This document shows positions 3,950 to 62,000 of a DNA stretch of 64,000 bases, piece after piece (within the stretch, counting starts at the first letter, position 1; the number at the start of each line of letters is the position of its first letter). This DNA comes from a virus, in IMG/VR virus record IMGVR_UViG_3300008113_005947, positions 1-64,000 of that record, one strand, 5' to 3'. The notes under the pieces are model-generated. The model saw only the letters and a list, made by a program, of their open reading frames with translations. It was not told the origin of the DNA and searched no databases. A program made the translations under genes and the position numbers.

Positions 3950-3950
3950 C

Positions 3951-13190: not shown

Positions 13191-13194
13191 CAGA

Positions 13195-13226
13195 TATTTA
13201 TAGACTAGACTTTAATCCATTAAATA
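13195..13226. promoter_or_regulatory. Back-to-back T4-late-like promoters
   Basis: TATAAATA on the minus strand (13202-13195, 4 nt from ATG 13190) and ATTAAATA on the plus strand (13219-13226, 5 nt from ATG 13232), within a 41-bp divergent gap. Confidence 0.6.
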
Positions 13227-13231
13227 TCATT

Positions 13232-13951: not shown

Positions 13952-15431
13952 TTGGAACAGTATAACTTACGACCGTTATCTAAGCGATAACAAACTAGAC
14001 ACTAAAGTGGGTCATGGCATATTAGATATAAGCCGTGATATTGATAGTGATTTTGTTAGAAAACGCACGTTTGACATGACCTTTTGGATGGTCAATCAAT
14101 GTCTTAAAATGGGGCATGGAAGCTATCGTGGATTTAATGAAAGCGTAAAAGAATTACTAAATGAGAGTTTAAATAGTGGCGATGAGATATGCATTATTCA
14201 ATGTCAGGGAATGATGAGTTTAAGACTAGCGCATATAGTTACTGAAAGCACAATATATTTTAGAAATAATCCAAATCATTTTGTAATTGGACATATAATG
14301 AATCGCAAGGGTAGATATCCTGGGATACATCGTCAGTTATTAATTGTTAATTTACGTGTCTGGGAACAATTAGGAAAGCCTGAATATTTAGAGAACGGAC
14401 ATTATTGGGACCGCAAGTTTAGTGGAGAAGATTTTATTGTAAGTGATAATAAGATATCCAGCGACTATGCGCCTGAGTATATTATACGCAATAGTGTACA
14501 TAATAAGACTGAATATAGTAGCACAGAAGATGGAAGTAATTGGGTTGATATTGCACTATCTAATGATATTCCAATACATAATCTAAGTTTAGATATGCGT
14601 GAGTGCAAATGCTTTTTATATCCCTACGAGGAAACAGATAAGATAGAGCGTGTTTGGAATAATCTACAGAATGAACAATTGGTAGATAGCTTAAGTAACT
14701 ACTCAACTAGAGCATGGATGCGTAAGCAAGCATATCAGGAGTTTATTGAAAAGGATCGTGTTTATGCATTTAATACAGAGAGATTAAGTGCTGAGGGTGT
14801 ACGTAGCCCGGGACCAATTGACAGTTTATTCTGTGCAGCCGCAGGGTTTAAACCATTAGCATTATTACGTAATAATCAGTTCCACGAGAATACAGTTGTG
14901 CATTATTTTGATTGGTGCAACAGCAGTTTGAATTTTAAAAAGCATTTACTAGAAACATGGGACGGACTTGAGTTTGATAAATGGTTAATTGAGCATGATT
15001 TAAAGTATAATTTCAGTAGCACATATCGTGGAAATTATAAAGAGTTTTGGGACCTAGAAATATCTAAAGAGTTTCATAGTGTTGAACAGTTTAAAGAACT
15101 ATGGGATAGATATAGAAAACTAGAACATCATTATCATGTTATTGACATTGTTAATGAGCCTGAAAAACTGTTTGACATAGTTAATAAACATGCAGGCAAT
15201 CGTGTATTATGGACTACAAATATCTGGGCTAGTCTAGCATTACACTGGAACGTTGAGCCAGAGTTATTAGAAGAAAAATATCTAAACTTTGAGAAATATA
15301 TACCAGATGATTTAATATTATATGGACAAGATTATATGGCACGTGACTTGCGTAGTCGTGTATTTGACGGATTTAAATTGACACATCCTCGTTACAGTAC
15401 AGAAAATAAATACATTAACATGGGAATTTAA
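13944..15431 (+). CDS. Hypothetical protein (495 aa); C-terminal half possibly SAM-binding Rossmann-like
   Basis: Long ORF within the operon. DSLFCAAAG...VVHYFDW weakly resembles methyltransferase motifs I/II. Confidence 0.5.
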   Translation: MRDWNSITYDRYLSDNKLDTKVGHGILDISRDIDSDFVRKRTFDMTFWMVNQCLKMGHGSYRGFNESVKELLNESLNSGDEICIIQCQGMMSLRLAHIVTESTIYFRNNPNHFVIGHIMNRKGRYPGIHRQLLIVNLRVWEQLGKPEYLENGHYWDRKFSGEDFIVSDNKISSDYAPEYIIRNSVHNKTEYSSTEDGSNWVDIALSNDIPIHNLSLDMRECKCFLYPYEETDKIERVWNNLQNEQLVDSLSNYSTRAWMRKQAYQEFIEKDRVYAFNTERLSAEGVRSPGPIDSLFCAAAGFKPLALLRNNQFHENTVVHYFDWCNSSLNFKKHLLETWDGLEFDKWLIEHDLKYNFSSTYRGNYKEFWDLEISKEFHSVEQFKELWDRYRKLEHHYHVIDIVNEPEKLFDIVNKHAGNRVLWTTNIWASLALHWNVEPELLEEKYLNFEKYIPDDLILYGQDYMARDLRSRVFDGFKLTHPRYSTENKYINMGI

Positions 15432-46300: not shown

Positions 46301-49300
46301 CATAGTCCAAGAACTATTAGAAACTTGTACTGGTGTGAAATTTTTTCTATATATTAATGGGTACCCAGATTGTCCATAATCAGTGGTTGCCCACGCCCAA
46401 TTAAATAATGTTCCGTCATTTTTTATTAAAGTTATCCAATTTGGTGAGCTGAATGCATATCCTGTCACATCTATAAAACTACCAGACAAAGCAGTAAGTT
46501 GCACTGGGCTACTACGTGATATAGTAGTGCCATCTCCTAATTGATTAAGTGAGCTTCCACTAGCACCCCATGACCATACAGTACCATTAGTTTGTAAACC
46601 TATAGTTACAGTTCCTATAGGAACTACTTTACTCCATGTATACTGGGCTCCTATTTGTACTGGACTGCTACGTGATATAGTATCATTTAGTCCTAATTCT
46701 TTAGCACCCCATGCATATAATTCACCAGCTGAATTAATTGCTGTTGCAAAACTCATACCTGCACTTATAGCAGACCACGATTGATTTACTGTTTGAGTTA
46801 TTTGTACAGGACTACTACGAGGGAATCCATCACCATATCCTAATTGTCCTGAACTATTTTGTCCCCATGCAAATAAACTTCCGAATGGATCTATAGCTAA
46901 TGCAAAATTTTCTCCGGCTGCAACTGATGTCCAATAACTAGTACCTATTTGTACTGGACTACTACGTTGTATTGTAGTACTATCACCTAATTGTCCGTAC
47001 CAATTATCTCCACCAACACCCCATAATGTACCGTCTAGACGTATTTGATATTGAGTAAGACCTCCGCCTGTTGCTAATTGTATCCAGCTATGTGTACCGT
47101 TAATGCCCGATTCGGCTGTAGCAAGAGTTCTAAATCCGGCTATTATCCAAAGTGATCCGTCAGTTTGTATTCCGAAATTAGCTCCAAAGGTAGAGGAATC
47201 ATTGCTTGCAATAGCAATACTTTGCCAATTAGATGCACCAATTTGTACAGGACTACTCCTACTTACAAAAGTTCCGTCTCCTAAGTAACCAGCTGATGAT
47301 CCCCATGCAAATAATTTATTGTCTGACCGTATTGCAAAAACTGACCCTGCAATTGAGTTTGGACCTGTTGCTCCAAACACACTTTTCCAACTATTATTAC
47401 CTACTTGGGTTAGTGTGTTCCTATTTACTGTATCATTTAAACCTAATTGACCATAAGTATTGGGCCCTGCACTAAATAAAATACCATCATATCTTATTGC
47501 ATAGATGTTAGCGGGGCCGCAACCTATTTGAATCCAACTATCATTTGAAATTTGTACTGGGCTACTACGATTGATAGTACTTCCGTCACCTAAATTTCCA
47601 CCTCCATTCCATCCCCATGCAAAAAGAAAACCTGTATTAGCTTCTAAAGCAATTACATGTAATGAGCCGGTATCTACTTTACTAAATGTTCTGCTAGATG
47701 CAATTTGAACTGGACTACTACGGTTAGCTATACTATTATCACCTACAGAACCATAAAAATTATATCCCCATGCATACAATCTACCTGCTGAATCTAAAGC
47801 AACAGTAAAGTTTTGGCTATTTCTTACAAAACTCCAATTATTATTAGTACCAATCTGTATAGGACTACTACGAGTTATAGTGGTTCCGTCACCTAACTGA
47901 CCTTCAAAATTTCTACCCCAGCCCCACAATGTACCGTTTGTTTTGATAGCCATTAAATGAGATTCACCCGCCGATATAACAGACCATGATGCTATATCTG
48001 TTATATTATTTCTTGCAAGTTGACCAAATTGATTATTACCACTAGAAAATAATAATCCATTAATATCTATTCCTAATGAAAAATTATTTCCCGCGGATAC
48101 AACATTCCAACTACTTGTCCCAACTTGTAATGGGCTATTTGTTGATGTTACCGTGTTTAAGAACAATTGACCCTGATTATTATTCCCCCAAGCCCATAAT
48201 GTTTTATCACTGCGAATTGCTAACGTATGATTAGTACCTGCACTTATTGCTGTCCAACTACTTGTTCCAAGTTGTGTTGGACTATTAAACAATAATGTTC
48301 CACCTACTTGTACCGGGCTAGACCTAGTTGAACCTGCAGTAACTAGACCCGAAATAATATAATTATCGCCCTGACCACTGTCACCTCCCCAGGCCCATAA
48401 ATTGTAAGAGGTATCAAGTGCCATCATACCGCGTTGGGTGTTAACTAACTGAAGCCAATTTGAAGTTCCGAGTACTTGAGTAGGATTTGATTTATTAATA
48501 GTAGTACCATCACCTAGTTGACCAAAAGTCGAATTAAGTCCCCATCCTATTACTTTTCCTGAACTATCAATAGCAGAATGATGACTTTGTGTAGATTTTA
48601 CTGCTACGCTAGAAACACCATTAGCTATTTGTACAGGATCACTTCTTGAAATTACTGTTCCATCACCTACTGTGCCTATAATATTAGTGCCCCAACCATA
48701 TAATGTACGATTGGTATTTAAAGCATAAGAATTATTTAAGCCAGCACCAACACCACTCCAATTAGATAAAAATCCTAACTGTACAGGGGTGCTACGACTT
48801 ATAATGTTACCGTGACCTAATTCACCATTAAGATTGTAACCATGTGACCACAATGTTCTATCATTTCTTATTGCTAATGTGAATTCAAGACCTAATGCAA
48901 CATCATTAAATTTGACACTTACTGAAACTTGTACAGGGCTACTTCTAGCAATAAGAGTGTTGTCTCCAATTTGACCAGCACTGTTTGACCCCCACATAAA
49001 AAGATTACTGTTTACGTCAATTGCCGCTGTAGTTCCCTGTCCCAAACTAGTGTTTCCGGGATTGGCTCTTACTAATGTCCAACTACTTGATCCTACTTGA
49101 ACTGGACTTGACTTACTAACAGTAGTATTGTCCCCTAGTTGTCCTTGTGCATTATAACCCCAACTGAATAATCTACCATTTATATCTATTGCAAAGGAAG
49201 TGCTAGGACCGGCAGCTATGAAAGACCAACTGCTATTTCCTATTTGCACTGGGCTAATACTATTACTAACATCACCTTTACCCAACTGACCTGTAGTATT

Positions 49301-49738
49301 TTCACCCACAGCCCATAAAGTGTTGTCTTGTCTTAGTAGTAATGTATGAGTCCATCCAGTAGCTATAGATTTCCATCCAGCATAATTAAATATACCACCT
49401 AAACCTAATTGATTAGATGTGTTACTACCCCAAACATACATTAAATTGTCACTACGTAATGCAAGACTATGACTAGCACCAGCATTAATATTATTCCAAC
49501 TATATCCTAAACCAATCTGTACAGGACTACTACGTGTGAGATATGTACCATCACCCAACTGTCCTGAAGAATTCAAACCCCATGCATATAGCAAGTTGTT
49601 ACTTTTTATAGCCAAAGCATGAGAACCACCTACACTAAGCTGTTTCCAGCTGGTGCCTATTTGTATAGGGCTTAACGAATATTGAGTAGTGTAACCGGCA
49701 ACCTGTGTTAAACTTGAACGGTTTGTATTAATACTCAT
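34385..49738 (-). CDS. Giant RCC1/BLIP-II repeat protein (5117 aa), putative virion fibre/adhesin
   Basis: About 50-55-aa repeats W.xxxAG..H.xAI..DG.LWxWG.N..GQLGDGTT.xRSSPVQ throughout. Confidence 0.9.
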   Translation of the reverse strand: MSINTNRSSLTQVAGYTTQYSLSPIQIGTSWKQLSVGGSHALAIKSNNLLYAWGLNSSGQLGDGTYLTRSSPVQIGLGYSWNNINAGASHSLALRSDNLMYVWGSNTSNQLGLGGIFNYAGWKSIATGWTHTLLLRQDNTLWAVGENTTGQLGKGDVSNSISPVQIGNSSWSFIAAGPSTSFAIDINGRLFSWGYNAQGQLGDNTTVSKSSPVQVGSSSWTLVRANPGNTSLGQGTTAAIDVNSNLFMWGSNSAGQIGDNTLIARSSPVQVSVSVKFNDVALGLEFTLAIRNDRTLWSHGYNLNGELGHGNIISRSTPVQLGFLSNWSGVGAGLNNSYALNTNRTLYGWGTNIIGTVGDGTVISRSDPVQIANGVSSVAVKSTQSHHSAIDSSGKVIGWGLNSTFGQLGDGTTINKSNPTQVLGTSNWLQLVNTQRGMMALDTSYNLWAWGGDSGQGDNYIISGLVTAGSTRSSPVQVGGTLLFNSPTQLGTSSWTAISAGTNHTLAIRSDKTLWAWGNNNQGQLFLNTVTSTNSPLQVGTSSWNVVSAGNNFSLGIDINGLLFSSGNNQFGQLARNNITDIASWSVISAGESHLMAIKTNGTLWGWGRNFEGQLGDGTTITRSSPIQIGTNNNWSFVRNSQNFTVALDSAGRLYAWGYNFYGSVGDNSIANRSSPVQIASSRTFSKVDTGSLHVIALEANTGFLFAWGWNGGGNLGDGSTINRSSPVQISNDSWIQIGCGPANIYAIRYDGILFSAGPNTYGQLGLNDTVNRNTLTQVGNNSWKSVFGATGPNSIAGSVFAIRSDNKLFAWGSSAGYLGDGTFVSRSSPVQIGASNWQSIAIASNDSSTFGANFGIQTDGSLWIIAGFRTLATAESGINGTHSWIQLATGGGLTQYQIRLDGTLWGVGGDNWYGQLGDSTTIQRSSPVQIGTSYWTSVAAGENFALAIDPFGSLFAWGQNSSGQLGYGDGFPRSSPVQITQTVNQSWSAISAGMSFATAINSAGELYAWGAKELGLNDTISRSSPVQIGAQYTWSKVVPIGTVTIGLQTNGTVWSWGASGSSLNQLGDGTTISRSSPVQLTALSGSFIDVTGYAFSSPNWITLIKNDGTLFNWAWATTDYGQSGYPLIYRKNFTPVQVSNSSWTMISVHSNSGIGIRNNKLYTWGSNVGGQLGTYNPLSWIFSGGIGYSANNGQYAIDSDGTLWTWAQLLNQLRYGGNIYDPVIASVSSPTQVGLAINTDLKFSKVAASTRGTYAITNTGKLFAWGTSNTNNSSGENYYTIPEQTYSWTSVTVGYQSTYALRNDGVLFAWGNNSFGQMGIGTTATPQASPTVVTYDNTLSFRPTNSLFFTNWNSIATAMPGAFHMAAINSNGTLFVWGYNASGQIGDGTTVNKSWITRIGTSSWTQVTLGANTTLAIRKDGYLFSWGLNNNGQLGDGSTINRSSPVQLGAYKWSSVVLVATTDGNNNTTLAIRSDNTLWAWGMNSLGQLGDSTTITRSSPVQIAGSWLFIGGSGATQNVFAINTDYKLFTWGAGVSTSAATSAAPTIASGIAWNTIAFTLGNSAIAADRLGRLYSWGTNESGVLGDGLTVQRLSPIQIHTGASYTFIAAGGSAVAAIRSDTSLWGWGNNQYGQFGTNETISRSSPVNIGGGGNYRRAAIGNTEAAYINTAFNLFTSGRNNVGQLGFGDTVTRSQPVQIGIGNSWIDVHAGQSFFVALDSNSKLWAWGLNTSGQLGDGTTINRSSPVQITSSVSYVAIGTAWDSSVAIDNLGRLYTWGINNVGQLGFGDTLNRSSPSQVGTSSWSQVQTGQFLVSALRIDNTLWAWGWNIWGQVGDNTIISRSSPVQMSAIYPTSFTQLNAITLPHKYGVGQANAILWGDQYALELWGIGALLGSTTNTNRSGPTQVGIDASRSSPVQVGTSSWIQVTSAGSSYVALIRADNSLWMVGNNTWSQYGDGTTVSRGYPAQMRTNVQKVSLGGLSGTTMTLTDNKLYAAGYNATSELGLGNAATQSSWTQVGVNTAHEIQQIFAGSSFTQVATSQFRTMVIKDDATLWTWGYNNLGQLGLGDTISRSSPVQISGSWSQISLGLSHSVGLRTDGTVYTWGGNSAGQLGDGTIVNKSSPIQLAGSYTAIGSNEGYTTYLLKTDGTLWGTGYNNDGMIGDSTTVNKSSPIQIGTGNSFSQIGVYSQSILAVRSTDNTLWAWGLNTSGQLGDGTTTSRSSPVQITSMGSGGTFLLSNNYSNFLTQTTIMFIKDSLLYSMGLGTSGELGDNTAVSKSVPTLVASGPRKMIMSPTQLGNSNWSTVSAGNNNMFAIDSNSRLFTWGTASSGSLGLLQGADYQSIASKGGFDTNTFTKGFTQWIKGNLTLWAVGDNSSGELGDNTTVSKSSPIQIGSSLWTQVSIGVNHIHAIRVDGTLWGWGNATGGTLGDGTTISRSSPVQIGVKTNWTNTDGWYAGAHAINSLGQLWGWGVNTDGVIGDNTNVSKSSPVQIGSDTTWLALYTNPASNQVAAIKTDSTLWTWGVNTYGQLGDNSTISRSSPVQIAGSWTMVSMNGAGNTGNFNMYGIKTDGTMWGWGRNNQGATGGYIGDDTSTDASSPVQIGSSITTSWKAVYGWYYGAFALSQNNFLYYWGSMSGAANWTGVATTSNTITLLGGVRFRDYTTWTRYTFGCFWPSASGLAYVWGVNSTGLLGDTTTVNKSSPVVLAGTDATIAYSPTQLPTFDGSASSWISVKSANNYTYAIKNDYTLWAWGNNNSGQFGDGTTISRSSPVQVGGSSWAQVGGGTDWTLAIKMIVGSTTGTLWAWGRNNLGQLGLNDTIDRSSPVQVGTLNTWTKVVRTNGSTAFALTTSTNNLYIWGDNSSGAIGDNTTINKSNPVQITSPSVSWTQIGHGIAVTSTGTLYTWGNNSTGSLGLGDTANRSAPTQVGLLTTWSFLPNYTYSNNFKAAGTTGNVIWAMGANDSGQLGDNSTVSRSSPVQVAGGLALNQMSLGVNQMAAITTIGTLYAWGNNSVGSLGVNDTLNRSNPTQITGSWTSVWATTNMIGIRTNSSVWAWGRNNNYSFSDGTSVDRSSPVQVGSASLSSSLFPYNMPLLAIACNNEQATWIIDASGLLYAWGVNTYGQLGDNTTVSKSSPTQLRWASSYTQIGTFTFGSTFGLALKSNYMLDAFGINSNGQLGDGTTITRSSPVQIGTSSILYTAVPNKINNTTSFNQVIAGNYHAFALNTQGLLYGWGENTTSQLGNNTAPEIYVETGTNSADGVGYAITSSRRLFVWGLNTAGQLGFGDTINRSSPVQLAGSWTSVTIGHSNMLGIRTDGTLWGWGYNNVGGLGDNTVNSKSSPVQIGALANWFRVIAGATTYAINTSGQLYAWGYNANGQLGDNTTINRSSPVQILTGFSFTVLPTSIGTNTLITTGALHVGAIDTVGRLWTWGNNAVGQLGFGDTLNRSSPIQIGTSSWTQISVGGSHTMALRQDNTIWTWGINAVGQLGDNTTISRSSPVQVGTLIMLPSWKMISAGLSHNVAIRADNTLWAWGLNTSGQLGDSSLSNRSSPVQVSTIGGVAANNFYVGVGGNEWSYVSAGYLKSHAIAPDGQLFAWGNPPVGVIGITTNQSWPVAVDFDFTVIAATSNNLISSPTQIGTSSWSVISAGARNSFGIKPDGTLWGWGSNYFGSLGIVAGDTLRDYNSGGYILNSTKQLYVWGGNVYGQLGQNDTINRSNPVQVGGSWLQLASTNYTSTGHKLAIDTSYNLWSWGYNNQGQLGDGTTINRSQPVQILNPNIWKDISAGNALTMGLRYDGSIWAWGAGLQLGQNDIISRSSPVQVGTSSWLVISAAAGCAHAIRIDGTLWGWGSNSFGQVGDGTTVNRSSPVQIGALAIWSKLAVSGGNSLGGMAAINKLGQLFVWGLNNNGQLGDNTFVNKSSPIQIMTTSSFTFIAAGEGFRMIDILGKLYVCGENTQGELGTNTTIRRSSPVQVGTANSWIMATMGSQDGSGTGQYTLALATDGTVWTWGNNSYGQLGDNTTISRSSPVQMGSDTWSYAVAGTISTAIRNNLLYVWGRNLTGALGLNDTLNRSSPVQLSATTSYVLASSGTPTNDGGIAVFAITTKGFLISIGGRNSNVGQFGDGTTIARSSPVQIGTNGTSWTQIFSVGADSGAMQIAIMDDNTLWAWGQNLYGQLGQNDTISRSRPVQILGSWTTAAAQGGQGAGTQGVLAIKTDGTLWAWGDNTYGQLGDGTTVSRSSPVQIGSNNNWSSVAIAVYTKAAINTLGQLYNIGGWNNYGEFGDDSNHLLYRSSPVQIMSGYSFTQIVSIFSSAGSYIARTTTGTIWSWGLGNVGQLGDGTTITRSSPVQIGTSSWVSIGSGTGNNGVAIGLLNDGTTNRLFVWGNGLTGQLGDNTVVSKSSPVQLDSVYTANTFAFYSSPVQIGTSSWIAVSTGGGTTFAIKADFTLWAWGNNGPNGQLGNNTTIYRSSPVQIGTSSWIAVSVAKIANYNTYPIVGRTPTAYYDAIYVSAIRSDGLLFAWGNNPVGNIGNNTTGLIAGPVQINTVGQNPFIYPNKLRTTIGLSFITVGVGASYVTALKTDGLLYVWGTDGLGQLADNSTVTTTSTPITVGGLSQTYIAGINQIGNSSWSQVSAGYSHTLGITRDSRLFGWGSSAGVNPMPIGIGAGNNAGWQYSGGSGGGGYVRHAIRNDGTLWATGYNNYGVLGDNTTITRSSPVQVSGGGSWIIVDCASYATAGATYAIKTNYTLWAWGQNAAGQLVQGDRIARSSPVQIPGSWASVCAATYVQTFVFAIKPDNTLWAWGDNSAGQLGDATIISRSSPVQVFASKRWLQVAVSDSGFTVALDTDNIAWSWGRNIYGQLGDNTTIDRSSPYQIGTEKHIQVAASINNIYLLRATGQIFATGLGQNGGVGDNNTVRRSSPVQVASSSLFKQVVSKGTNVENAFAIDINNNLWAWGYNLQGELGDNTTIYRSSPVQITASGNVVSIAQSGNVGGYIDKFSQIWLWGFNTYGGMGDNTTVNKSSPVQVNTGLTGIINSSPVVVASGSWTQVRAGNEFSLITDTNNALYFWGRNDLHQSGTNSYAVYVSSPIQIGSSVVSSPSTVGSGGTGGGFIKNI

Positions 49739-52700
49739 GTACCGTCCCCCAGTTGTCCATTGCTGTTGTTACCAAATGTATATACTGAACCATCAGATTT
49801 TTCTATTATGTTATGATTGTATCCAGCACTTATTAGTGTATAACTAGAACTACTAATTTGCACTGGACTACTTCTATTTATCGTAGAAGAATCGCCGACT
49901 TGTCCATTTACATTGTAACCCCAAGCAAATAACAATCCTGAGGAATTTTTTGCTAAACTATGATTTTCTCCTGAACTTACACTACTCCAACTATCTGTAC
50001 CTATCTGTACGGGACTACTTCTATAATAATTACCATAATCAACTGATCCAATTTGTACTGGACTGCTTGCGTTGGCTGCGGCAACAAATGACATACCGGC
50101 TAATTTATACTGTACACCGTATGTATTTGTATTGTTTTGTCCCAATTGACCGGTAGTATTTAATCCTGATGCTACCATCTTATAACCTAATACAGGATCA
50201 TTAGACATAACTGCTGTTATATGTGAACCACCTGATGCTAGTAGGGTAAAGTTATATGTGCTTAATTGTACTGGACTAATTCTATCCGTAGTACTTCCAT
50301 CTGATAATATTGAACTTGAACCACCATTGGATCCCCATGCAAACAAGCTATTATTAGATAAGATACCATATGCAAAAGAATAACCTGCAGATACAGTACT
50401 CCAATTACTGTTACCTACCTGTGTAGGACTACTTCTATTTTGAAGTAAAGAAATTTGTACTGAGTTTATTGATCCTAGTTGTACTGGACTGCTACGATTT
50501 ACGTTTTGATTATCACCTAATGAAACCCATCCAGCTGAGTTGAAACCCCATGACCAAACTAGTTCTTGATTTTGTGCTGTAGCGCCTGATATCGTTGTTG
50601 TAGCAAAGGTACTATCATATCCTAAAGATAATTTACTCCAAATAATTAAAGGTAAGTTGCCAACCCATGATGAAATTATTTGCACAGGACTACTACGTGA
50701 TACAGTTGTAAAATCTCCTAGTTGTCCTTCATTATTACGACCCCACATCCACAGTACACCACTTGTTGATATAGCACCTGAATGTGAACTTCCTGCAGAA
50801 ATAACAGACCAGCTACCTGCAATTTGTACCGGGCTACTACGTGATATAGTAGTATTATCTCCCAATTGGCCAGTACTATTACTTCCCCATGACCATAGTG
50901 TATTATCAGTTTTCAATCCTAATGCATGTGTTGTTGGGGTGACAAATCCTGTAAAGTTAGAAGCATTTATCTGAGTCCAACTACCTGGTATTTGACTAGG
51001 TGTATATTCAATATATCCTGTTGACAATTGTACTGGACTACTTTTGTTAATAACGGTATTATCTCCTAATTGACCAACACTATTTGATCCTACTGTAAAT
51101 ATTGACCCTGATGAATTTCTAAATGCGGCATATGAACTTCTCACCGATACAATAGTATTGTTAGTTGAAGAACCTACTTGTCTTGGTTGGAATTGGGTGC
51201 GGCTGGCCAGTGCAAAGTTATTTCCTGTTTGACCAACATTATTACTTCCCCATGACCATAATGTACCATCTGTCTTAACAGCAAATTGATTGTTCACACT
51301 AAAATTGTCATTACCGAAACCTACTTGTGTCCATGAACCTGCAATTTGTACTGGAATAGGTTGAAACATAGATAACGATAAAACGCCGGACCACACTGCA
51401 CCTGTGATTGACTTATTAGTAAGAGTTAAATCACCTAATTGACCTGTTGTGTTAAGTCCCCAAGCCCACATTTTTCCAGTTGGTTCGTTTGAAACTAGTA
51501 TATAGTTTCTTTCAAAACCACTGAACAGTTGTATAAATGAGGCGCTGTTGGCAGTATTTAAACTAAGTAGCTGTACAGGGCTACTACGACTAACTGTTGA
51601 TGAATCACCTACTTGACCACTATTATTTCTACCCCAAGCAAATACTAGATAGTCTGTCCTTACTGCTGTAGTAGAACGGTCTGTAGTTGCCAATGTAATC
51701 CAACTAGCGTCAGTTCTCACTTGTACTGGACTACTACGATGCACTGTGTCATTAAGTACTCCTAATTCTCCGTTGTTGTTAGCACCCCATGCAAATAATT
51801 GTCCTAATGTATTTAAATATGCAAATCCATTAGCATACGGACGCATTTGTGATACGTTTGCAAAACCTGATGTAACTTGTACCGGGCTACTACGATTCAC
51901 GGTAGTATTTGATGCAAGCTGTCCAAGACTATTACTACCCCAAGTCCAATATGTACCATCGTTTTTCAATGCCATACTCATTGCGGCACCGCCCCAGATA
52001 TTTGTCCAGGTACCTGCAAGTTGCACTGGACTACTTCTACTGGCAGTAGAACTATCACCTAACTGACCGTTACTATTAATTCCCCATGCCCATAATGTAC
52101 CATCTGTCTTAATAGCTAACATATGAAAGTTTGACCTGCCTGTCATAAGAACAGACCAACTACCGGCTATTTGAGTTGGGCTACTACGTGATATAGTATC
52201 ACTTTGACCTAATTGACCATCGGTATTACTACCCCATGCCCATAATGTAGCGTCATCTTTTATACCAAAAGATGCACTGTTTGGTGCGTTTGTATTAGCA
52301 CCTGCAACTAGGGTCCATCTTCTTACTCCACCTGCTGTAAGTACAATAGGACTAGATTTAGTAACTATGGTGTTATCTCCTAATGCACCAGCAGTACCTA
52401 ATCCATACATGTATAATGTATTATCCCCCCTTAGAGCCATAGTATGACTATCTGAACCGGCTATTTGTGTGAAGCTATAAGTAATTCCCAATGCCTGATA
52501 TTCGTTATATCCCCATACCCATAATGTACTATCTGATTTAATTGCCGCACTACTGTACTGTCCTGCAGTGACTTGTGTAAAACTAGAACCAACTTCTAAT
52601 TGAATTGGTCTAGGAGCCCACAATCTATAAACAACATTGTTACTAATAGTGAAGGGATATAATGTTGTGCTACCCAGATAATAATTACCTGCCGCAGATA

Positions 52701-55700
52701 CCTGTACCGGGCTACTACGATTTATTGTAGTGTTGGTGCCCATAGCTCCTATTGAACCATTACCCCAAGTCCATGCAATACCATTATTATCGACACCGGT
52801 AATTGTTTGTGCGCCTTGAGATGAGAATGTATATGATATTGGGGTTCCTATACCTGTGCCCGGACTTCCCGATTGTGTATAAACGAAATTGGTAGCTATC
52901 TGTACTGGACTGCTACGTGAAACGGTAGTGTTGTCACCCACAAGTCCAAGACTTGTACTCCAGCCCCAACCATGTAATGCTAATGATGCTTTGTTTGATG
53001 AATATTGAACACCAAAGAATCCTCCGTTATTTGTACCACTACTCTGGTCTGCGTATCCATAAACCTGAGTCCAGCTGTTAGCACCTATTTGTACTGGACT
53101 ACTTCTAGCTACTGTATCATTTTGTCCACAAGATCCATTAGTGTTTACGCCCCATGCAAATAATCTTCCAACACTATCAATTGCTGCCATGCCACCTTGT
53201 GTTGTAGCAACTGCACTCCATGTACTAGCACCTATTTGTACAGGACTACTACGGTTTACTGTATCATTCAACCCTAAACCACCTGCACCATTCGCCCCAC
53301 TGTTAAGTCCCCAAGACCATAATGTGCCACCGGTTTTAATTCCTAAAGCCATATCTCGTTTAATACTGATAGTAACCCAACTACCAGGCACTTGTACAGG
53401 ACTGCTACGATTAACAGTATCATTTAAACCTAACACACCTGATGTGTTTAACCCCCACATATACAATCTACCATCATTAGTTATTGCGGCAGTTACTTCA
53501 CCAACTTGTGATGTTGTAAAGAAATTGAAAGTTAATCCTGTTGTCCCTGCTACTTGAACTGGACTACTTCTAGCGACAGTAGTTAAATCTCCTATTTCTC
53601 CATTGGTATTACTTCCCCAACTCCACAGTGTACCGTTTGATTTCATAGCATGTGTAGTTGACGTTGTTGTGTTATATCCTGCACTTTCTGATTTTACCCA
53701 TAGATTATCTGTTGCAGTTCCTAGAATACCTGGAATGTTATTATCAGCAGTACTATTATTACCCATTTGACCAAAGTTATTTCGTCCCCAAGTCCATAGA
53801 TATCCGTCATTTGTAACTCCTGATCCAGCACCATATGTTAGCCAATGTTGTCTAAGGGCTGTTCCGCCAGTTAACTGCAATAATCCATTATTGCCCCAAC
53901 CATACAATTGTCCTGTTGTTCTTAGTGCAAGTGTATGTGATGTACCCGGTGCCACTTGACTCCAATTTGTAATACTACTAGCTACTTGTACTGGACTACT
54001 TCTATTAATAGTAGTACCGTCACCAACAGCATATAAAGTATTAGCACCCCAGGCCCATAATGTACCGTCAGTTTTTATAGCATAAGTTACTTCAAATCCA
54101 GCTGACACATAAGTATAACTACCTGCAACTTGTACCGGACTAAGATAAGTTGTAGTATTATTTTGACCTAATTGACCTGAATTATTTTTGCCCCAAGTAA
54201 ATAATCTCCCTGAAGCGTCAATTGCCGCAACATGGCTCCAACCAGTTGCTACGCTAGTCCAACTACTATTTCCTATTTGTAGTGGATATGAAATATTAGT
54301 AGAGGGAAGAGCGTCACCAAAGCCTAATTGACCAATATTGTTGTTCCCCCAAGAAAATAATTTACCATCACTACGTATTGCTATCATAAATCCAGTATTG
54401 TCTGCACTATTTGCACCGGCACTTATTGTAGTCCATGAATATGTTGTTGATAGACTTCTTCCTAATTGTCCAAAGTCATTTGCTCCCCAACTCCATAATG
54501 TACCGTCGGCTTTTAATGCTAACGTAAAATTAGATCCTACACTTATTGCAGTCCATGAACTAGTGCCTATTTGTACAGGGCTTGAAAGTAATTGAGTTGC
54601 GTATATATCGGTTCCAAATTGACCGTAAATATTATTACCCCAAGCCCATAATGTATTATCACTCTTAATAGCCAATGAAGTGAAACCACCATAACCAGAA
54701 GATACGGATAACCATGAACTATTACCTATTTGTATAGGATTACTTCTTGCTATAGCACTACCGCCTGTATTATCACCTAATTGACCATACCGATTATCAC
54801 CCATAGAATATAATTTATCATTTTGATTAATCAATAGCGATGATAATCCACCACCGGATACGTCTTTAAAAAATAATGATCCGGCTTGTACAGCCGTAAC
54901 TACGGAATTGGCAACAGTACCTAATCCTAATTGACCATTGGCATTATTACCCCATGCAAATGTTGCATAATCTTCTCTTATTGCAAATCCGTTATAATAG
55001 CCACCTGCTACTAGTTTTCTAATAGTTGATACATATCCCAATTGTCCAACAGTATTAGAACCCCATGTAAATAATTTACTAGTAGTTGTAATTCCTGTAC
55101 TAAAATCAACTCCAGCAGATACTACACTCCAACTGCTACTACCTATTTGTAGGGGATTATTTATTGTACTATAACTTAGTGATCCAACTTGTACTGGACT
55201 ACTACGGTTTACGTTAGTATTATCACCTACAGAACCATTTGCGTTTGAGCCCCAAGCAAAAAATCTACCAGCAGTATCAATTGCCGATGATACAAAATTA
55301 TTACATGCTACAGCTGACCATGTGCTTGCACCAACTTGTACAGGGCTACTACGACTAATCGTAGTGTTTTGACCTAGTTGACCCCCATCATTTCTGCCCC
55401 ATGACCATAAGAAATAACTAGAATCTAATGCTATTGTAAGTGAAAGACCTAATCCAAGTTTATACCACGTTTTGCCAACACCTGCTTGAACAGGACTACT
55501 TTTGTTAATAGTGGTACTATCACCTATTTGACCAAAATTATTATATCCCCAAATCCATAATGTATTATCAGATTTAATACCACCTGATATGCCGTTTCCT
55601 GCAGTTATACTAGTCCAATTACCTGAAATTTGTACTGGACTACTACGTGCGGCAGTAGTACCATCACCTATCTGGCCAAATGTATTATTGCCCCATGCCC

Positions 55701-58700
55701 ATAATGTATTGTCTGCTTTTCTTGCTAAAAATGTTCTTCCACCTGCGGCGCTGTTTGCTCCTTTGCCTCCTACTACCTCTACAAAAGTAGTTCCGGCAAG
55801 TACTTGTACCGGGCTACTACGAGTGACTGTGGTTGCACCATTGTCGCCATATATACCACCAAACCATTGACCCCATACATATATAGTATTATCTGTTTTT
55901 ATACCTAACGTAGTTTCGGCAGTTACTGCAACAATAGACCAACTGCCACCACCGGATACCTGTACAGGACTGCTTCTATAAGTTACAGTATTATCACCCA
56001 ACTGTGCGTTACTGTTTGCGCCCCATCCCCATAATGTTCCGTCTGACTTGATTCCGAATGTGAAATAATCAACAGGGAATACACCTTCACCGCTAGCTAC
56101 TATCATAGTCCAACTACCTGCAACTTGTACTGGGCTACTTCTACGAATAGTAGTGTTATCTCCTAGTGACCCGCTAGGATTATTATCTCCCCACATAAAT
56201 AATTGTCCGGCACCGACAGTATCTGATAAAATATATCCATTAGTATTGCCGCCGCCTACTAACAACATTGATATAGTTTTTGGAGTATTATATCCCACTT
56301 GTCCAGTATCATTCTTACCCCAAGCATACAGTTTACTAGTGTTATCTATTGCAAGTACATGTGACGCTCCTGCACTTACACTAGTCCAAGATTTAGCACC
56401 AAGTTGAATAGGTACACTACGTGTTACTGTATCTCCTTGACCCAATTGATATACAGAATTAAGACCCCAGGTAAATAATCTACTAGAAGTATCAATGGCA
56501 CTACTATAACTTAATGAAGCTGATATTTTAATGAACTCGTTAGAATACCCATTGGATAAAAATATAGGACTTGACCGTGCTACAGTATCACCTAAACCCA
56601 ATGCACCAAATGTATTATTACCCCATACATACAGTTTATTCTGTCCATCACGTATCATCATAGAGCCACGATTGATATATGCTTCTTTTAAATTTCCAGT
56701 AAAAGGCAATGCAACAACACTACTTCCTATTTGCACAGGGCTACTAGTATTAGCACCCGAAGATGTTATTAAGCTGTTACTTGTGTTTGTGCCCCAGCCC
56801 CAAATTGTATTATCGCTTCTTCTTGCTAGTGCTGTTCCACCACCACTAGCGTTTAATGTACCCTGTAAATCAACCCATCTATTATCTGCAATTGTTCCTA
56901 ATTGTACCGGACTACTTTTATTAACTATGTCACCTAATCCTAAAACACCGGTGGCGCCTTGACCCCATGTGAATATGTATCCGTTACCTATTGCACCTGC
57001 TGAATATTCACCTAAATTAGTAACACCAGTAAATGTTATATTACTGAAAGGTGTAGCTACTTGTACAGGACTACTACGAGATAATGTAGTGCCATCACCT
57101 ATTGTACCGTATGTTTGGTTTCCGCCCCAACCATATATTACGTTGTTAGTATCACTAGCAATGAAGGCAGCATTAGATGAAAATCCAAATCCATTAACTG
57201 GACCTATAATATAATTCCAGTTAGTTGATGTTCCCACCTGTACAGGACTTGATTTAGTAACAGTAGTACCATCACCCAACAATCCACCATCTCCATATCC
57301 CCATGTCCATAATGTTCCGTCAGTTTTTATTGCCGCGCTTGAACTTATTCCTGCCGCTATAACAGAAAAATCACTTAATGATAATACTTGAGTTGGGCTA
57401 CTGCGTGAGACAGTACTAGTTAATCCTAATTGCCCTACGTTATTCATTCCCCAACCCCAAATTTTATTACCAGTAAGCGCAAGTATATGACGCCATCCTG
57501 TAACTACCTGGCTAAATGAAGATAATCCTACACCAACACCTCCATTTAATTGCACTGGACTTGATTTACTAACAGTAGTACCATCACCTATTTTTCCATC
57601 ACCACCATTACCCCATACAAATAATAATCCACCTACTTTTATACCTACTGTAAAGGCATTGCCTGCACCTAATGCATTATAACCATATACACTAGTCCAA
57701 CTACCTGCAATTTGCACTGGACTACTACGTGATACAGTAGTACCATCACCTAACTGACCCTGGTTATTATCACCCCATAAGAATAATCTACTATCTGTTG
57801 TTATTGCCCCATACACACCTTTAGTAAGACTAGCCCAATTAGTATTAGTACCTAGTTGTACAGGACTACTGCGACTAATTGTAGTTCCATCACCTAAATA
57901 CCCCGCACTATTAAATCCCCAGGCCCATAATGTGCCATCATTTCTGATAGCCATGACTGCACCTGATACTACTGATACAGCGGACCATAAAGTACCACTA
58001 TTAATTTGTATAGGACTGCTACGTGATACCGTAGAGCCATCACCAAAAGTTCCTTCAGCATTTCTTCCCCAACCCCACAGTGAGCCACCGCTTAAAAAGA
58101 ATGTAGTTGTGTCTGTTGTTAAACTTGCAGTGTTTACGTTATAACTTAATTTAACGCCTATTTGTACTGGGCTACTTCTACGAATAGTAGCACTATTGTC
58201 ACCAACTTGCCCAAAATCATTAAATCCCCAACCCCACAATGAGTTATCACTTTTGATACCATATCTATTATATGCAGTATAGGCAATAGTTGGTATATAG
58301 TTCCAAGTACCAGCTAATTGCGTTGGCGCACTACGACTTGCTGTTGAAGTATCTCCAACTTGTCCATATATATTATTTCCCCATGCAAAGTATACACCGG
58401 TATTAGTAAGTGCTGTGCCTGCACTAATTTGAGTAATACTTAAGGCAGCAAAAGTTGCAATTTGTACTGGACTACTTTTTGCTACAGTCGTACTATCTCC
58501 AATCGCTCCGCTAGAGTTGCTTCCCCAAGCCCAAAGATTACCATTACCTGTAGTCAGTGCATATGTGGTGTCCTCCATTGTTTTTGCTACTAATGCCCAT
58601 GAAGTTAATGCACCAACTTGGACAGGACTACTTCTATTAATTGTATCTCCTAACCCGAGTTGTCCTGCATTATTATATCCCCATGTCCATAATGTACCAT

Positions 58701-59052
58701 CACTTTTAACTGCGGCGCCGTGAAAGCCACCACCACCTATTGACACCCAGTAAGGTGCAAAAATTTGTATTGGGCTTAATCTAGTTGTATTAGTACCATC
58801 ACCTACTTGGAAGGCTGCATTACCGCCCCATCCCCATAATGTATAATCAGACCTGATTCCCAAAGTATGATTCGCTCCGGCACTTACATTAAGCCAACTT
58901 GATGTACCTAGTTGTATTGGACTTGATTTACTAGCAGTGGTATTATCACCTAATTGTCCTGATGTGTTATCCCCCCAGGCCCACAAGGTGCCGTCACTTC
59001 TGACTGCCATACTATGAGAAGATCCGTTACTAATAGTTGTCCAACTTAACAT
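49735..59052 (-). CDS. Giant RCC1/BLIP-II repeat protein (3105 aa)
   Basis: Same repeat, about 58 units by manual count. ATG overlaps the upstream stop (TAATG) and its TGA overlaps the downstream ATG (ATGA). Confidence 0.9.
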   Translation of the reverse strand: MLSWTTISNGSSHSMAVRSDGTLWAWGDNTSGQLGDNTTASKSSPIQLGTSSWLNVSAGANHTLGIRSDYTLWGWGGNAAFQVGDGTNTTRLSPIQIFAPYWVSIGGGGFHGAAVKSDGTLWTWGYNNAGQLGLGDTINRSSPVQVGALTSWALVAKTMEDTTYALTTGNGNLWAWGSNSSGAIGDSTTVAKSSPVQIATFAALSITQISAGTALTNTGVYFAWGNNIYGQVGDTSTASRSAPTQLAGTWNYIPTIAYTAYNRYGIKSDNSLWGWGFNDFGQVGDNSATIRRSSPVQIGVKLSYNVNTASLTTDTTTFFLSGGSLWGWGRNAEGTFGDGSTVSRSSPIQINSGTLWSAVSVVSGAVMAIRNDGTLWAWGFNSAGYLGDGTTISRSSPVQLGTNTNWASLTKGVYGAITTDSRLFLWGDNNQGQLGDGTTVSRSSPVQIAGSWTSVYGYNALGAGNAFTVGIKVGGLLFVWGNGGDGKIGDGTTVSKSSPVQLNGGVGVGLSSFSQVVTGWRHILALTGNKIWGWGMNNVGQLGLTSTVSRSSPTQVLSLSDFSVIAAGISSSAAIKTDGTLWTWGYGDGGLLGDGTTVTKSSPVQVGTSTNWNYIIGPVNGFGFSSNAAFIASDTNNVIYGWGGNQTYGTIGDGTTLSRSSPVQVATPFSNITFTGVTNLGEYSAGAIGNGYIFTWGQGATGVLGLGDIVNKSSPVQLGTIADNRWVDLQGTLNASGGGTALARRSDNTIWGWGTNTSNSLITSSGANTSSPVQIGSSVVALPFTGNLKEAYINRGSMMIRDGQNKLYVWGNNTFGALGLGDTVARSSPIFLSNGYSNEFIKISASLSYSSAIDTSSRLFTWGLNSVYQLGQGDTVTRSVPIQLGAKSWTSVSAGASHVLAIDNTSKLYAWGKNDTGQVGYNTPKTISMLLVGGGNTNGYILSDTVGAGQLFMWGDNNPSGSLGDNTTIRRSSPVQVAGSWTMIVASGEGVFPVDYFTFGIKSDGTLWGWGANSNAQLGDNTVTYRSSPVQVSGGGSWSIVAVTAETTLGIKTDNTIYVWGQWFGGIYGDNGATTVTRSSPVQVLAGTTFVEVVGGKGANSAAGGRTFLARKADNTLWAWGNNTFGQIGDGTTAARSSPVQISGNWTSITAGNGISGGIKSDNTLWIWGYNNFGQIGDSTTINKSSPVQAGVGKTWYKLGLGLSLTIALDSSYFLWSWGRNDGGQLGQNTTISRSSPVQVGASTWSAVACNNFVSSAIDTAGRFFAWGSNANGSVGDNTNVNRSSPVQVGSLSYSTINNPLQIGSSSWSVVSAGVDFSTGITTTSKLFTWGSNTVGQLGYVSTIRKLVAGGYYNGFAIREDYATFAWGNNANGQLGLGTVANSVVTAVQAGSLFFKDVSGGGLSSLLINQNDKLYSMGDNRYGQLGDNTGGSAIARSNPIQIGNSSWLSVSSGYGGFTSLAIKSDNTLWAWGNNIYGQFGTDIYATQLLSSPVQIGTSSWTAISVGSNFTLALKADGTLWSWGANDFGQLGRSLSTTYSWTTISAGANSADNTGFMIAIRSDGKLFSWGNNNIGQLGFGDALPSTNISYPLQIGNSSWTSVATGWSHVAAIDASGRLFTWGKNNSGQLGQNNTTTYLSPVQVAGSYTYVSAGFEVTYAIKTDGTLWAWGANTLYAVGDGTTINRSSPVQVASSITNWSQVAPGTSHTLALRTTGQLYGWGNNGLLQLTGGTALRQHWLTYGAGSGVTNDGYLWTWGRNNFGQMGNNSTADNNIPGILGTATDNLWVKSESAGYNTTTSTTHAMKSNGTLWSWGSNTNGEIGDLTTVARSSPVQVAGTTGLTFNFFTTSQVGEVTAAITNDGRLYMWGLNTSGVLGLNDTVNRSSPVQVPGSWVTISIKRDMALGIKTGGTLWSWGLNSGANGAGGLGLNDTVNRSSPVQIGASTWSAVATTQGGMAAIDSVGRLFAWGVNTNGSCGQNDTVARSSPVQIGANSWTQVYGYADQSSGTNNGGFFGVQYSSNKASLALHGWGWSTSLGLVGDNTTVSRSSPVQIATNFVYTQSGSPGTGIGTPISYTFSSQGAQTITGVDNNGIAWTWGNGSIGAMGTNTTINRSSPVQVSAAGNYYLGSTTLYPFTISNNVVYRLWAPRPIQLEVGSSFTQVTAGQYSSAAIKSDSTLWVWGYNEYQALGITYSFTQIAGSDSHTMALRGDNTLYMYGLGTAGALGDNTIVTKSSPIVLTAGGVRRWTLVAGANTNAPNSASFGIKDDATLWAWGSNTDGQLGQSDTISRSSPTQIAGSWSVLMTGRSNFHMLAIKTDGTLWAWGINSNGQLGDSSTASRSSPVQLAGTWTNIWGGAAMSMALKNDGTYWTWGSNSLGQLASNTTVNRSSPVQVTSGFANVSQMRPYANGFAYLNTLGQLFAWGANNNGELGVLNDTVHRSSPVQVRTDASWITLATTDRSTTAVRTDYLVFAWGRNNSGQVGDSSTVSRSSPVQLLSLNTANSASFIQLFSGFERNYILVSNEPTGKMWAWGLNTTGQLGDLTLTNKSITGAVWSGVLSLSMFQPIPVQIAGSWTQVGFGNDNFSVNNQFAVKTDGTLWSWGSNNVGQTGNNFALASRTQFQPRQVGSSTNNTIVSVRSSYAAFRNSSGSIFTVGSNSVGQLGDNTVINKSSPVQLSTGYIEYTPSQIPGSWTQINASNFTGFVTPTTHALGLKTDNTLWSWGSNSTGQLGDNTTISRSSPVQIAGSWSVISAGSSHSGAISTSGVLWMWGRNNEGQLGDFTTVSRSSPVQIISSWVGNLPLIIWSKLSLGYDSTFATTTISGATAQNQELVWSWGFNSAGWVSLGDNQNVNRSSPVQLGSINSVQISLLQNRSSPTQVGNSNWSTVSAGYSFAYGILSNNSLFAWGSNGGSSSILSDGSTTDRISPVQLSTYNFTLLASGGSHITAVMSNDPVLGYKMVASGLNTTGQLGQNNTNTYGVQYKLAGMSFVAAANASSPVQIGSVDYGNYYRSSPVQIGTDSWSSVSSGENHSLAKNSSGLLFAWGYNVNGQVGDSSTINRSSPVQISSSSYTLISAGYNHNIIEKSDGSVYTFGNNSNGQLGDGT

Positions 59053-62000
59053 TATGTATTATTTCCTATCTGTCCAAACGTATTATCACCCCATGTAAAT
59101 AAATTACCATACGCATCAATTGCATTGCTACTATTATTAGTAGCGGCAATATACTTATATATCTTAGTACCTACTTGCATCGGACTACTTCTAGGTAATA
59201 AGCTACTATTATTTAACCCGCCGTTAAGATTGGCTCCCCATGTCCATATTGTACCATTTTGTGCCAATGCTACACTATAACTTTTGCCTGCTTGGACATC
59301 TGTCCAATTGCCTGATACTTGTACTGGACTTGATTTAGTAACAGTAGTACCATCACCTAATTGTCCATTACTATTTGTACCCCATGTCCATAGTGTATTA
59401 TCGATTCTAATTGCTGTAGTGAAATTATCAGATACACTACCTATTATCCAACTATTTGTTCCAATCTGCAATGGGCTACTTCTATTAGACGTTGTTATAT
59501 CTCCTAATTGTCCGAATCCATTATAGCCCCACATATATAATCTACCCAAAGCATCTATTGCCATGCTAGTTGACATACTAGCATTAACAAATGCCCAGCT
59601 ACTTAATAGTCCTATACGAACTGGTCTATCATAAAAATTTCCTTTTCCTGTACCCATTTGTACAGGGCTACTGCGTGAAAGAACATCATTAAATTGTCCC
59701 AATTTTCCAGAGTCGCCTTGACCAGTCACCATAGTAGTATCATTCAATACACCAAATATATTAACACTGCCTGCATATAAATTAGTAAAGCTAAATGATC
59801 CTACTTGCACCGGGCTACTTCTAGATAGAGTATCATTTTGTCCTAACTGTCCCCAAGTATTATCTCCCCATGCCCATATTGTTCCATCAGTTCTTAATGC
59901 ACTAGAGAAACTATAACCTGCACTTATTTGAGTATAACTGCTAGAATTTAATTGTATAGGGGATGGTACTATAGTTTTTAGTGCTGTATCTATTTGTACA
60001 GGACTACTTCTTGAAATTACAGTACCATCACCTAGTTGTCCTGAACTATTCGACCCGAATGTAAATAATACTCCCGCAGAATTTATATATCCTGCTTGAT
60101 TTTCTATACCACTAATTAAATCTGTGTTAGGAAGCTGTTTATATGTTCCAGAAAGTACAATGGGACTTGATTTATTAACTGTGGTATCATCACCTAGTTG
60201 ACCTAATTGATTACGACCCCATCCATACACTACACCACCACTAGTTCCGAGTACCGTAGTTGCAAATGCAGTTACGTCAGTCCAACTACCAGGTACTTGC
60301 ACTGGGCTACTTCTAGCTGTTGTATTATTTTGTCCTAATTGTCCGTATAAATTTTGACCCCATGACCATAAAGTATTATTAGATTGTAATGCTACTACAC
60401 CATATAAAGTAGATACAACTTTAGTCCAAATATTCAATGTACCAACTTGTACTGGGCTACTTCTATTAATTGTAGTTCCACTACCTAAATTTCCATTGAC
60501 ATTGAGACCCCAGGTCCACAGTGTGCCATCTGTTTTTACTATAGCTACATATGATAAACCTTGACAAACTGAACTTATGCCACCGCCAAATATTTGCACA
60601 GGACTACTACGACTAATTGTACTATTATTCCCTAGTTGACCTACGGAGTTACTACCCCAAGCATACAATCCACCATTACTTGTTAAACCTATTGTGTTTC
60701 CATTTGTAGTATAAATTTTAGTCCAATTGAGAGCAGTTCCTATTTGTATCGGACTACTGCGATATATTGTAGTATTATCACCTAGTTGTCCAATATTATT
60801 GTATCCCCATCCATAAAGAACACCAGAAAAATCTACTGCAAACATACTTGCAGAACCAAAATCACCACCTAAGGTTCCTAAAAAGCTAAATGACATTGTA
60901 CTAACTTGCACTGGACTACTTTTTGACACTGTAGTACCATCGCCATATGACGGCGTTGTAACGCCTACAGTTGAACCCCATGCATATAAGTATCCACCAT
61001 TTTTTAATCCAAAAGTAGTAGAACCCATTGATACTTGTAGCCAACTATTAGAAGAAGTTATAGTTGCAAGTTGACCGAATGTATTACTACCCCAAAGATA
61101 TAAGCTATTATTAATCAAACCCATAACGTGTGAACTGCCTGCGGCAATTTGAGTCCAACTACTTGTTCCTATTTGTATAGGGCTACTACGATAACCCATA
61201 TTAGATTCTAAGTTATTTGCTAATACTCCAAATGTTCCATTGCCCCAACTCCATAATGTACCATTACTCTTAGTAGCGATAGTAAAATCACTTTTTATAC
61301 TTACTAAATTCCAACTACCACTAGTTTGTATTGGGATTGAACGAGTGACTGTAGTATTATCACCAACTTGGCCACTAGAGTTAAGTCCCCATACAAATAA
61401 TCTCTTGTCTGTTGTTATTGCGGCACTAAAAGATGCGCCGGCGGTTATTAAACTCCAGCTACTATTACCAACTTGTAACGGGCTGTTTCTAGCTGAGGCT
61501 GAACTTCCAGTACTTGTTTGTGTTGGGCTACCTTTATCAACTGTAGTATTATCACCCAATTGACCTGTAGTGTTAAGTCCCCATGTATTAAAATTACTAA
61601 GAACATCTAGTCCATAAGAACTATATGCACCTGTAGAAACATAAGTCCAACTGCTAGTACTTACTAAAGAAATTTCTCTAACTGCTGTATTTACTATCTG
61701 TACAGGATTACTTCTTGCTATAGTAGTACCATCACCCAACTCACCATTTTTGTTTCCACCAAATGCAATTGCATATCCTTGGCTAGAATAAGCTATAGTA
61801 TGAAACTGAGTGTCAGTACTTGCAGGAATGCCAGCACCACCTGCATATACTTGAGTAAATGATATACCTGTAGATATTTGTACAGGACTACTTGTATTGT
61901 TTATTGTATTATTACCCAACTGTCCTGCAGAATTCAAACCCCAGGTAAATAATCTACCTAGGCTGGTAATCCCGACTGAATGAAAGGTTCCAACAGAAAT

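Follow-up and report, generated by a model that had tools for sequence, protein, structure and literature searches.

We analyzed a 64,000-nucleotide stretch (hereafter the window) formed by positions 1 to 64,000 of a viral genome, IMG/VR record IMGVR_UViG_3300008113_005947, which is a single 75,325-bp contig. The minus strand carries three contiguous giant open reading frames (ORFs), g3, g1, and g2, of 3286, 3105, and 5117 amino acids, that consist almost entirely of RCC1 repeats. In these proteins, complete seven-bladed propellers appear to be inserted between the blades of other propellers. Very probably, g3, g1, and g2 constitute one architectural unit of ~11,550 residues, in which 210 RCC1-type blades are organized into 30 seven-bladed propellers that form a rooted tree. 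A fuller proposal, the case for which we judge evenly balanced, is that three separately translated giants form one tree-shaped particle of ~1.3 megadaltons with 30 propellers, whose root and two inner rings are completed between chains, which is interlocked by a fractal-like recursive fold, and which serves as a multivalent phage appendage. The three genes are as follows.

59055 to 64000, minus strand: g3; the C-terminal 1648 codons lie in the window and the start lies beyond it, at contig nt 68912 (3286 aa in full)
49738 to 59052, minus strand: g1; 3105 aa with 58 blades, the gene in which nesting was originally observed
34388 to 49738, minus strand: g2; 5117 aa as found in the window and 5159 aa as encoded by sister assemblies

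The Pfam families matched were RCC1, RCC1_2, WD40_RLD, and, in g3, Laminin_G_3. The window part of g3 scored 972 bits against PF25390 (WD40_RLD; cut-off 150) and 523 bits against PF00415 (RCC1; cut-off 21.7), and residues 1532 to 2690 of g1 gave similar RCC1 and WD40_RLD scores, above the curated cut-offs. For parsing, each repeat was divided into an X module, comprising strands B, C, and D with the GQLG hairpin, and an A strand of the form DGTTxxRSSPVQ (the SSPVQ strand). X modules were detected with a hidden Markov model (HMM) built from 72 canonical repeats, and A strands with position-specific scoring matrices (PSSMs) that gave 0 to 1 chance matches in shuffled sequence. A normal run then reads X A X A, an opener is an X followed directly by another X, and a closer is an A followed by another A. 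A second classifier, independent of the A motif, used the spacing between successive X matches alone. The automatic parse based on motifs was noisy because degenerate A strands were missed, and it was superseded by the spacing-based parse. Several junctions are degenerate, among them the closing strands of X43-49 and X32-38, and were assigned by consistency rather than by motif.

A preliminary description of this DNA had paired ten openers and closers in g1 like parentheses, each pair around exactly seven repeats. HMM and PSSMs recovered all ten within ~25 nt of where they had been placed; each pair encloses seven blades, and each interrupted host also sums to seven. The three-level arrangement drawn for g1 was reproduced as well: a host propeller (L1) carries a second host (L2) after its fourth blade, and L2 has the layout 4-[7]-1-[7]-2. 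Three levels had been given as the greatest depth, which holds within g1; the whole three-ORF system reaches depth 6. The elements of g1 are listed below.

55183 to 56292, minus strand: X19-25, inserted propeller with closing A strand, seven blades (HMM/PSSM parse)
55141 to 55164, minus strand: host closer INNPLQIG after X19-25 (PSSM parse)
50473 to 55035, minus strand: host propeller L1, X27-30 plus X52-54, seven blades
50413 to 50442, minus strand: L1 closer QNRSSPTQVG
51025 to 54459, minus strand: host propeller L2, X31-34, X42, and X50-51, seven blades
50986 to 51009, minus strand: L2 closer YTPSQIPG
52699 to 53868, minus strand: X35-41, inserted propeller, seven blades (parse)
51385 to 52488, minus strand: X43-49, inserted propeller, seven blades; its closing strand, KSITGAVW, is degenerate
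49738 to 50139, minus strand: C-terminal 134 aa of g1, with three successive A strands (a double closure) and then blades X57 and X58

Four further cases had been noticed in the other two genes, and each of them was found to hold seven blades.

48305 to 49402, minus strand: g2 X3-9, inserted propeller, the best-tested case (AlphaFold model of g2 aa 1-575)
34655 to 35776, minus strand: g2 X87-93, inserted propeller (parse)
59988 to 61067, minus strand: g3 X43-49, inserted propeller (parse)
61695 to 62759, minus strand: g3 X32-38, inserted propeller (parse), with a degenerate host closer

These layouts suggest the following scheme. A blade consists of strand A (SSPVQ) and strands B-C-D, followed by the GQLG hairpin. 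An insert would enter its host right after this hairpin, in the loop that leads toward the A strand of the next blade; it would begin with B-C-D and end with an A strand that closes its own first blade, as in UVR8. Because this last A strand would complete the B-C-D of the first blade, the two ends of the insert would meet in one blade. A propeller of the UVR8 type has both ends in the same blade and could therefore be spliced into a surface loop with neither partner disturbed. The host chain would resume after the insert with its own A strand. Inserts of one to three tandem propellers could carry further inserts, to depth 6, and the tree would be built by repeated insertion after the GQLG hairpin.

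Nesting extends across the gene boundaries, at each of which a stop codon overlaps a start codon. Both ORF breaks fall in the insertion loop.

59050 to 59054, minus strand: g3/g1 junction, TAATG overlap; g3 ends as an opener, GQIGNNT*, and g1 starts with MLSWTTISNG, which resembles the first blade of an insert
49735 to 49738, minus strand: g1/g2 junction, ATGA overlap; the break separates the GQLGDGT hairpin from the A strand that follows (MSINTNRSSLTQV)

The end of g1 lies just past GQLGDGT, and g2 starts with an A strand followed by a second A strand. We found that nesting balances only when g3, g1, and g2 are read as one chain. With nine ambiguous junctions of g3 and g1 left free, an exhaustive search returned a single parse in which every closure encloses a multiple of seven blades. 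This parse makes the body of g1 an insert of three propellers that follows blade seven of a g3 propeller, and the closing strand of this g3 propeller comes from the C-terminal 134 residues of g1. An outer propeller takes two blades, X57 and X58, from the C terminus of g1 and five from near the N terminus of g3; its closing strand is the N terminus of g2.

No complete parse was obtained for g2 as it stands in the window, where the root propeller ends at six blades. Two sister assemblies encode a g2 of 5159 aa, and protein alignment with P0005 and P0130 showed that the longer version carries 42 additional residues after aa 1012 and otherwise differs by two substitutions. This addition consists of one X module with an opener in front of it.

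46700 to 46701, minus strand: site of the missing 126 nt (42 codons, one blade plus opener), present in other assemblies

In three independent public runs, contigs include a further 126 letters at the site 46700/46701 of the window, contigs of a fourth run break exactly at this site, and among the public runs examined no contig spans the junction found in the window. The gap is probably an assembly collapse within the repeat, or else a deletion variant that would leave one propeller a blade short. With the extra blade included, the chain has 210 blades and parses completely into 30 propellers with a maximum depth of 6; 25 of 25 closures are valid, and inserts may be one to three tandem propellers. 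The root propeller then has seven blades, one of them the first of g3 and the other six from g2. When the order of the junctions was shuffled, none of 200,000 arrangements was valid, and the best reached four valid closures.

Two features were noted at the ends of this chain. The first blade of g3 (contig 68859 to 68912) matches just the D-strand part of the blade HMM, and g2 (window 34388 to 34516) finishes with a pair of A-like strands and a short tail rich in Gly, ..GGGFIKNI. What is left of the root propeller's first blade may be built jointly by the final 23 residues of g2 and the initial 18 of g3.

The full parse requires three rings that contain strands or blades from a second polypeptide. 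We predicted the complex of fragments of a shared propeller, namely g3 aa 34-173, g3 aa 528-627, g1 aa 3007-3105 (the partner), and g2 aa 1-30. The interaction prediction score from aligned errors (ipSAE) of this four-fragment complex was 0.54 (0.60, 0.54, and 0.45 in the runs) versus 0.11 for the best control, which is weak support; the predicted local distance difference test (pLDDT) score of the partner was at least 82, and contact agreement between runs was at least 76%. When the tool was calibrated, the threshold was passed by 51 of 78 solved complexes and by 2 of 108 mismatched pairs; at an ipSAE of 0.60 or below, 5 of the 78 solved complexes passed, plus all 4 of the mismatches that passed.

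The nested tree could also be real and yet consist of a single polypeptide of ~11,500 aa, produced by −1 frameshifting at both junctions, or the ORF breaks could be recent damage. Both junctions do shift to the −1 frame, so that a single chain needs the same shift twice; read-through would yield ordinary repeats (GQIGNNT-..LSWTTIS and GQLGDGT-.SINTNRSS), and the balance of the nesting across all three ORFs, and only across all three, also fits one chain. However, no slippery heptamer (X-XXY-YYZ) is present at either junction, and an overlap of start and stop codons at both is an arrangement that random frameshifts rarely produce. The breaks are also maintained: the same three ORFs are found on other JGI/ENA assembly contigs of 49.9, 128, 45, and 29.8 kb (at least four assemblies), and a variant with 91% identity, hence 9% divergence, in protein sequence keeps identical ORF ends. 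The last codons of g1 (window 49741 to 49749) are CTG GGG GAC, a codon choice that no other of the 113 GQLG motifs shares and that puts GGGGGA 6 nt ahead of the g2 start; GGG accounts for 4% of Gly codons. This is a minor point, because 15 of the 113 motifs carry some Shine–Dalgarno-like run. We consider a single polypeptide or recent damage unlikely. The three products would instead be separate chains, made by coupled translation and locked together through three shared propellers. The insertion loop would tolerate chain breaks, since neighboring rings would hold each ring together.

We compared these genes with 117 other giant RCC1 proteins from metagenomes. The X-to-X distance in this set is trimodal. 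The innermost opener-to-closer count was seven in 74 cases versus 6.0 expected by shuffling, and all other counts were depleted; this strong enrichment at exactly seven is the opposite of the automated-parse result that, according to the preliminary description, would count against its interpretation. When the 117 proteins and the window genes were pooled, all 12 hosts of single-insert nests at depth 2, and all 3 of double-insert nests, totaled seven blades. At least one clean seven-blade insert was present in 47 of the 117 proteins. The nested pattern is accordingly not a one-off, and it is a feature of a subset, because some giant RCC1 proteins are strictly linear. As a negative control, the parser reported zero openers in strictly linear giant RCC1 proteins. 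Linear runs of 40 to 57 blades without openers are found in P0022, P0032, P0042, P0077, P0097, P0106, and P0115; three of these carry a type IX secretion system (T9SS) sorting domain (PF18962). Mostly linear RCC1 genes, or several shorter ones, occupy the related viral loci L001 to L005, where an L2-like layout was not found. In L002 to L005 (IMG/VR contigs, ~1765 to 15186), the RCC1 region is split into adjacent ORFs of 1060, 483, 978, and 381 aa and is preceded by three paralogous ORFs of ~410 aa with a common end motif, ...YN+ALTA.EV.QNF.A.+GR.G. No colinear propeller pairs stood out in a comparison of blade similarity.

AlphaFold was applied to two nested segments, and ring topology was read from the alignment ranges of the models, not from coordinates or predicted aligned error. 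Model 2 (g2 aa 1-575) covers two host blades, a seven-blade insert, and two more host blades, and its input alignment comprised nine window paralogs that share this layout. Openers and double A strands fall in register when 11 window paralogs are aligned. Model 2 reached a pLDDT of 73.7 and a predicted template modeling (pTM) score of 0.61. The whole propeller of UVR8 (residues 13-376) superposes on residues 118-480 of the model with a Z score of 47 and a root-mean-square deviation (rmsd) of 1.8 Å over 347 aligned residues. The opener linker spans residues 113-121 and the closing SSPVQ strand residues 472-478; because the superposed range matches both, the predicted ring is exactly the seven blades between opener and closer. 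Its predicted closure is of the UVR8 type, starting with B-C-D and ending with A; the four host blades lie outside the insert ring with pLDDT values of 65 to 90. The preliminary description had named, as an outcome that would count against nesting, propellers built from contiguous repeats regardless of openers and closers; the opposite was predicted, with a ring bounded by opener and closing strand and not by sequential register.

Model 1 (g1 aa 1532-2690) covers L2 with both of its inserts and was computed from 31 aligned homologues, giving a pLDDT of 70.3 and a pTM of 0.41. For its first insert (X35-41), propeller targets align on residues 208-587, which run from the opener to the closing strand. 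With respect to closure of the host, the model is compatible with either state. An earlier alignment for the L2 fold was dropped; in it, P0023 and P0051 aligned on non-equivalent regions, with blade-sized insertions.

Several observations weigh against a tree of closed rings completed between chains. Model 1 left both host closers below a pLDDT of 50, and for its second insert (X43-49) the best superpositions with RCC1-family structures start at residue 623 rather than 657, one blade early, with an rmsd of 4.6 to 4.9 Å. Contact of host blades across an insert was never directly seen. Likeness to solved RCC1 rings could alone explain why the four-fragment complex passed. Between aa 575 and 2030 of g2, several junctions are degenerate, and the complete parse has four alternative versions, which differ just at the degenerate g2 junctions X18, X26, X39, and X85. 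The sequence of the window is itself one blade short. When blades were compared by position, the best match fell on the same position for 7 of 16 contiguous propellers and for 3 of 7 hosts, a weak signal.

Some of these points would suit a pattern left by past insertions, in which the inserts are closed and the interrupted hosts are now open arcs or flexible linkers; in one model the insert ring alone was seen, and host closers were left unplaced in the model of L2. Host totals of exactly seven in every testable case, including 15 of 15 automated nests and the 25 closures of the full parse, would be explained by selection for closed rings and not by decay, and therefore argue against open hosts. 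Host blades are also conserved as well as insert blades, and the fragment complex did reach weak support. On this evidence we regard open hosts as quite unlikely, and propose that the interrupted host blades re-form closed rings, as the blade counts and the one weak complex prediction suggest. The earlier interpretation that whole propellers were inserted into loops of others, yielding a branched rather than a linear protein, gains support from the spacing parse and from Model 2, with ring closure of the hosts as its conditional part. Very improbable is an ordinary linear string of propellers, in which openers and closers would be half-repeats that have degenerated or been duplicated where domains meet: many giant RCC1 proteins do run in strictly linear order, and alternating A-first and B-first propellers would also put XX and AA junctions seven blades apart, but such a string needs seven blades from each closer to the next opener, where 1 to 6 summing to seven per level were observed, the predicted ring leaves out the flanking blades, and a three-residue opener, judged from propeller geometry, could not join strand D to strand B of the neighboring blade in the same ring.

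Individual parts of the proposed closed-ring tree have counterparts in known systems. UVR8, RCC1, and the RCC1-like domain (RLD) of HERC2 have the same seven-bladed fold, with strands B-C-D of the first blade at the N terminus and its A strand at the C terminus; however, they are single or tandem propellers, whereas the propellers described here are inserted recursively, with nothing that indicates a guanine nucleotide exchange factor or photoreceptor function; nucleotide exchange or chromatin binding would not be anticipated for a structural module of a phage. The RCC1-like domain of UBR5 is discontinuous, with two inserts right after its fourth blade (10.1101/2022.11.03.515015), and propellers interrupted by foreign domains ("type 2") include those with lectin inserts, such as the sialidase of Vibrio cholerae (PMC2716378). 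In UBR5 and the sialidase, as is proposed here, the chain exits the propeller between blades and then returns, but their inserts are small, have another fold (UBA, small beta-barrels, lectin), and reach one level, whereas here the inserts are complete, of the same fold, and extend to depth 6. The open propeller of Sec13 is completed in trans by Sec31, Sec16, or Nup145C (PMC2922654). It makes one propeller from strands of two polypeptides, as is proposed here, although in that case the six-bladed partner receives one blade, whereas the present system would share three rings between chains, as judged from sequence logic and a weak prediction. Phage RCC1 proteins (phrog_7220, phrog_4219; Synechococcus phage S-SRM01) belong to the same repeat family, are phage-borne, and adjoin tail-fiber genes. 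In S-SRM01, single-propeller RCC1 genes of ~345 to 405 aa lie beside a long tail-fiber gene; they differ from the genes described here in being single propellers without described nesting, and the PHROG annotations were assigned by name transfer alone.

The individual parts, namely RCC1 propellers, the insertion of domains, and completion of rings in trans, are known. In full-text searches we found neither a propeller within a propeller nor a fold recursively inserted into itself to form a branched megadalton particle, in keeping with the earlier statement that no description of this architecture was known; literature searches likewise returned nothing on cyanophage RCC1 genes. If the tree is real, it represents a new way of building very large, rigid, multivalent proteins from one repeat and explains how chain breaks are tolerated inside such a fold. 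It would be a hard test case for repeat annotators and structure predictors, and would indicate that freshwater viruses resembling cyanophages have a class of appendages that has yet to be studied.

The preliminary description had also suggested that the proteins form a virion appendage. The part of this idea that stands is the genomic setting, its sole support: the giant genes are located in a tail-fiber module, four genes of which directly adjoin g3.

Contig 68912 to 74872 (L006 9912 to 15872), minus strand: tail-fiber module of four genes upstream of g3

The four genes encode a 189-aa protein resembling tail-fiber assembly proteins or chaperones, a 175-aa tail-fiber protein, a 1075-aa virion structural protein (phrog_5838, E = 0) that is 44 to 45% identical to its counterparts in T4-like cyanophages such as S-RSM4, and a 537-aa fiber-like protein with NAQPNITSLGTL repeats. 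No homology of the giant genes to characterized fiber proteins was obtained, PHROG matches being solely to RCC1 families without tested function. In its probable form, the product is an appendage associated with the tail fibers, rigid and branched in build and highly multivalent; judged by the gene neighborhood, the particle could act as a branched, multivalent, tail-fiber-associated adhesin of a relative of T4-like cyanophages. The sequence was detected in lake, river, and drinking-water metagenomes of 15 studies.

Domains of another fold are present in one g3 propeller.

63141 to 63929, minus strand: Laminin_G_3 (concanavalin-like) domain between strands B and C of one g3 blade

A second Laminin_G_3 domain lies in the same propeller (contig nt ~64100 to 64950, L006), between strands A and B. 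Because both sit at loops without propeller inserts, foreign domains and propellers use different insertion sites. Downstream of the giant genes, window positions 576 to 34327 are densely occupied by tailoring-type genes, namely radical S-adenosylmethionine (SAM)/SPASM proteins, an AspH-like hydroxylase, family 2 glycosyltransferases (GT2), methyltransferases, and a 2-oxoglutarate (2OG) oxygenase. Possible targets of the tailoring enzymes are the loops of the giant proteins that are rich in Ser, Thr, and Asn. Genes for class I ribonucleotide reductase are interspersed in this set.

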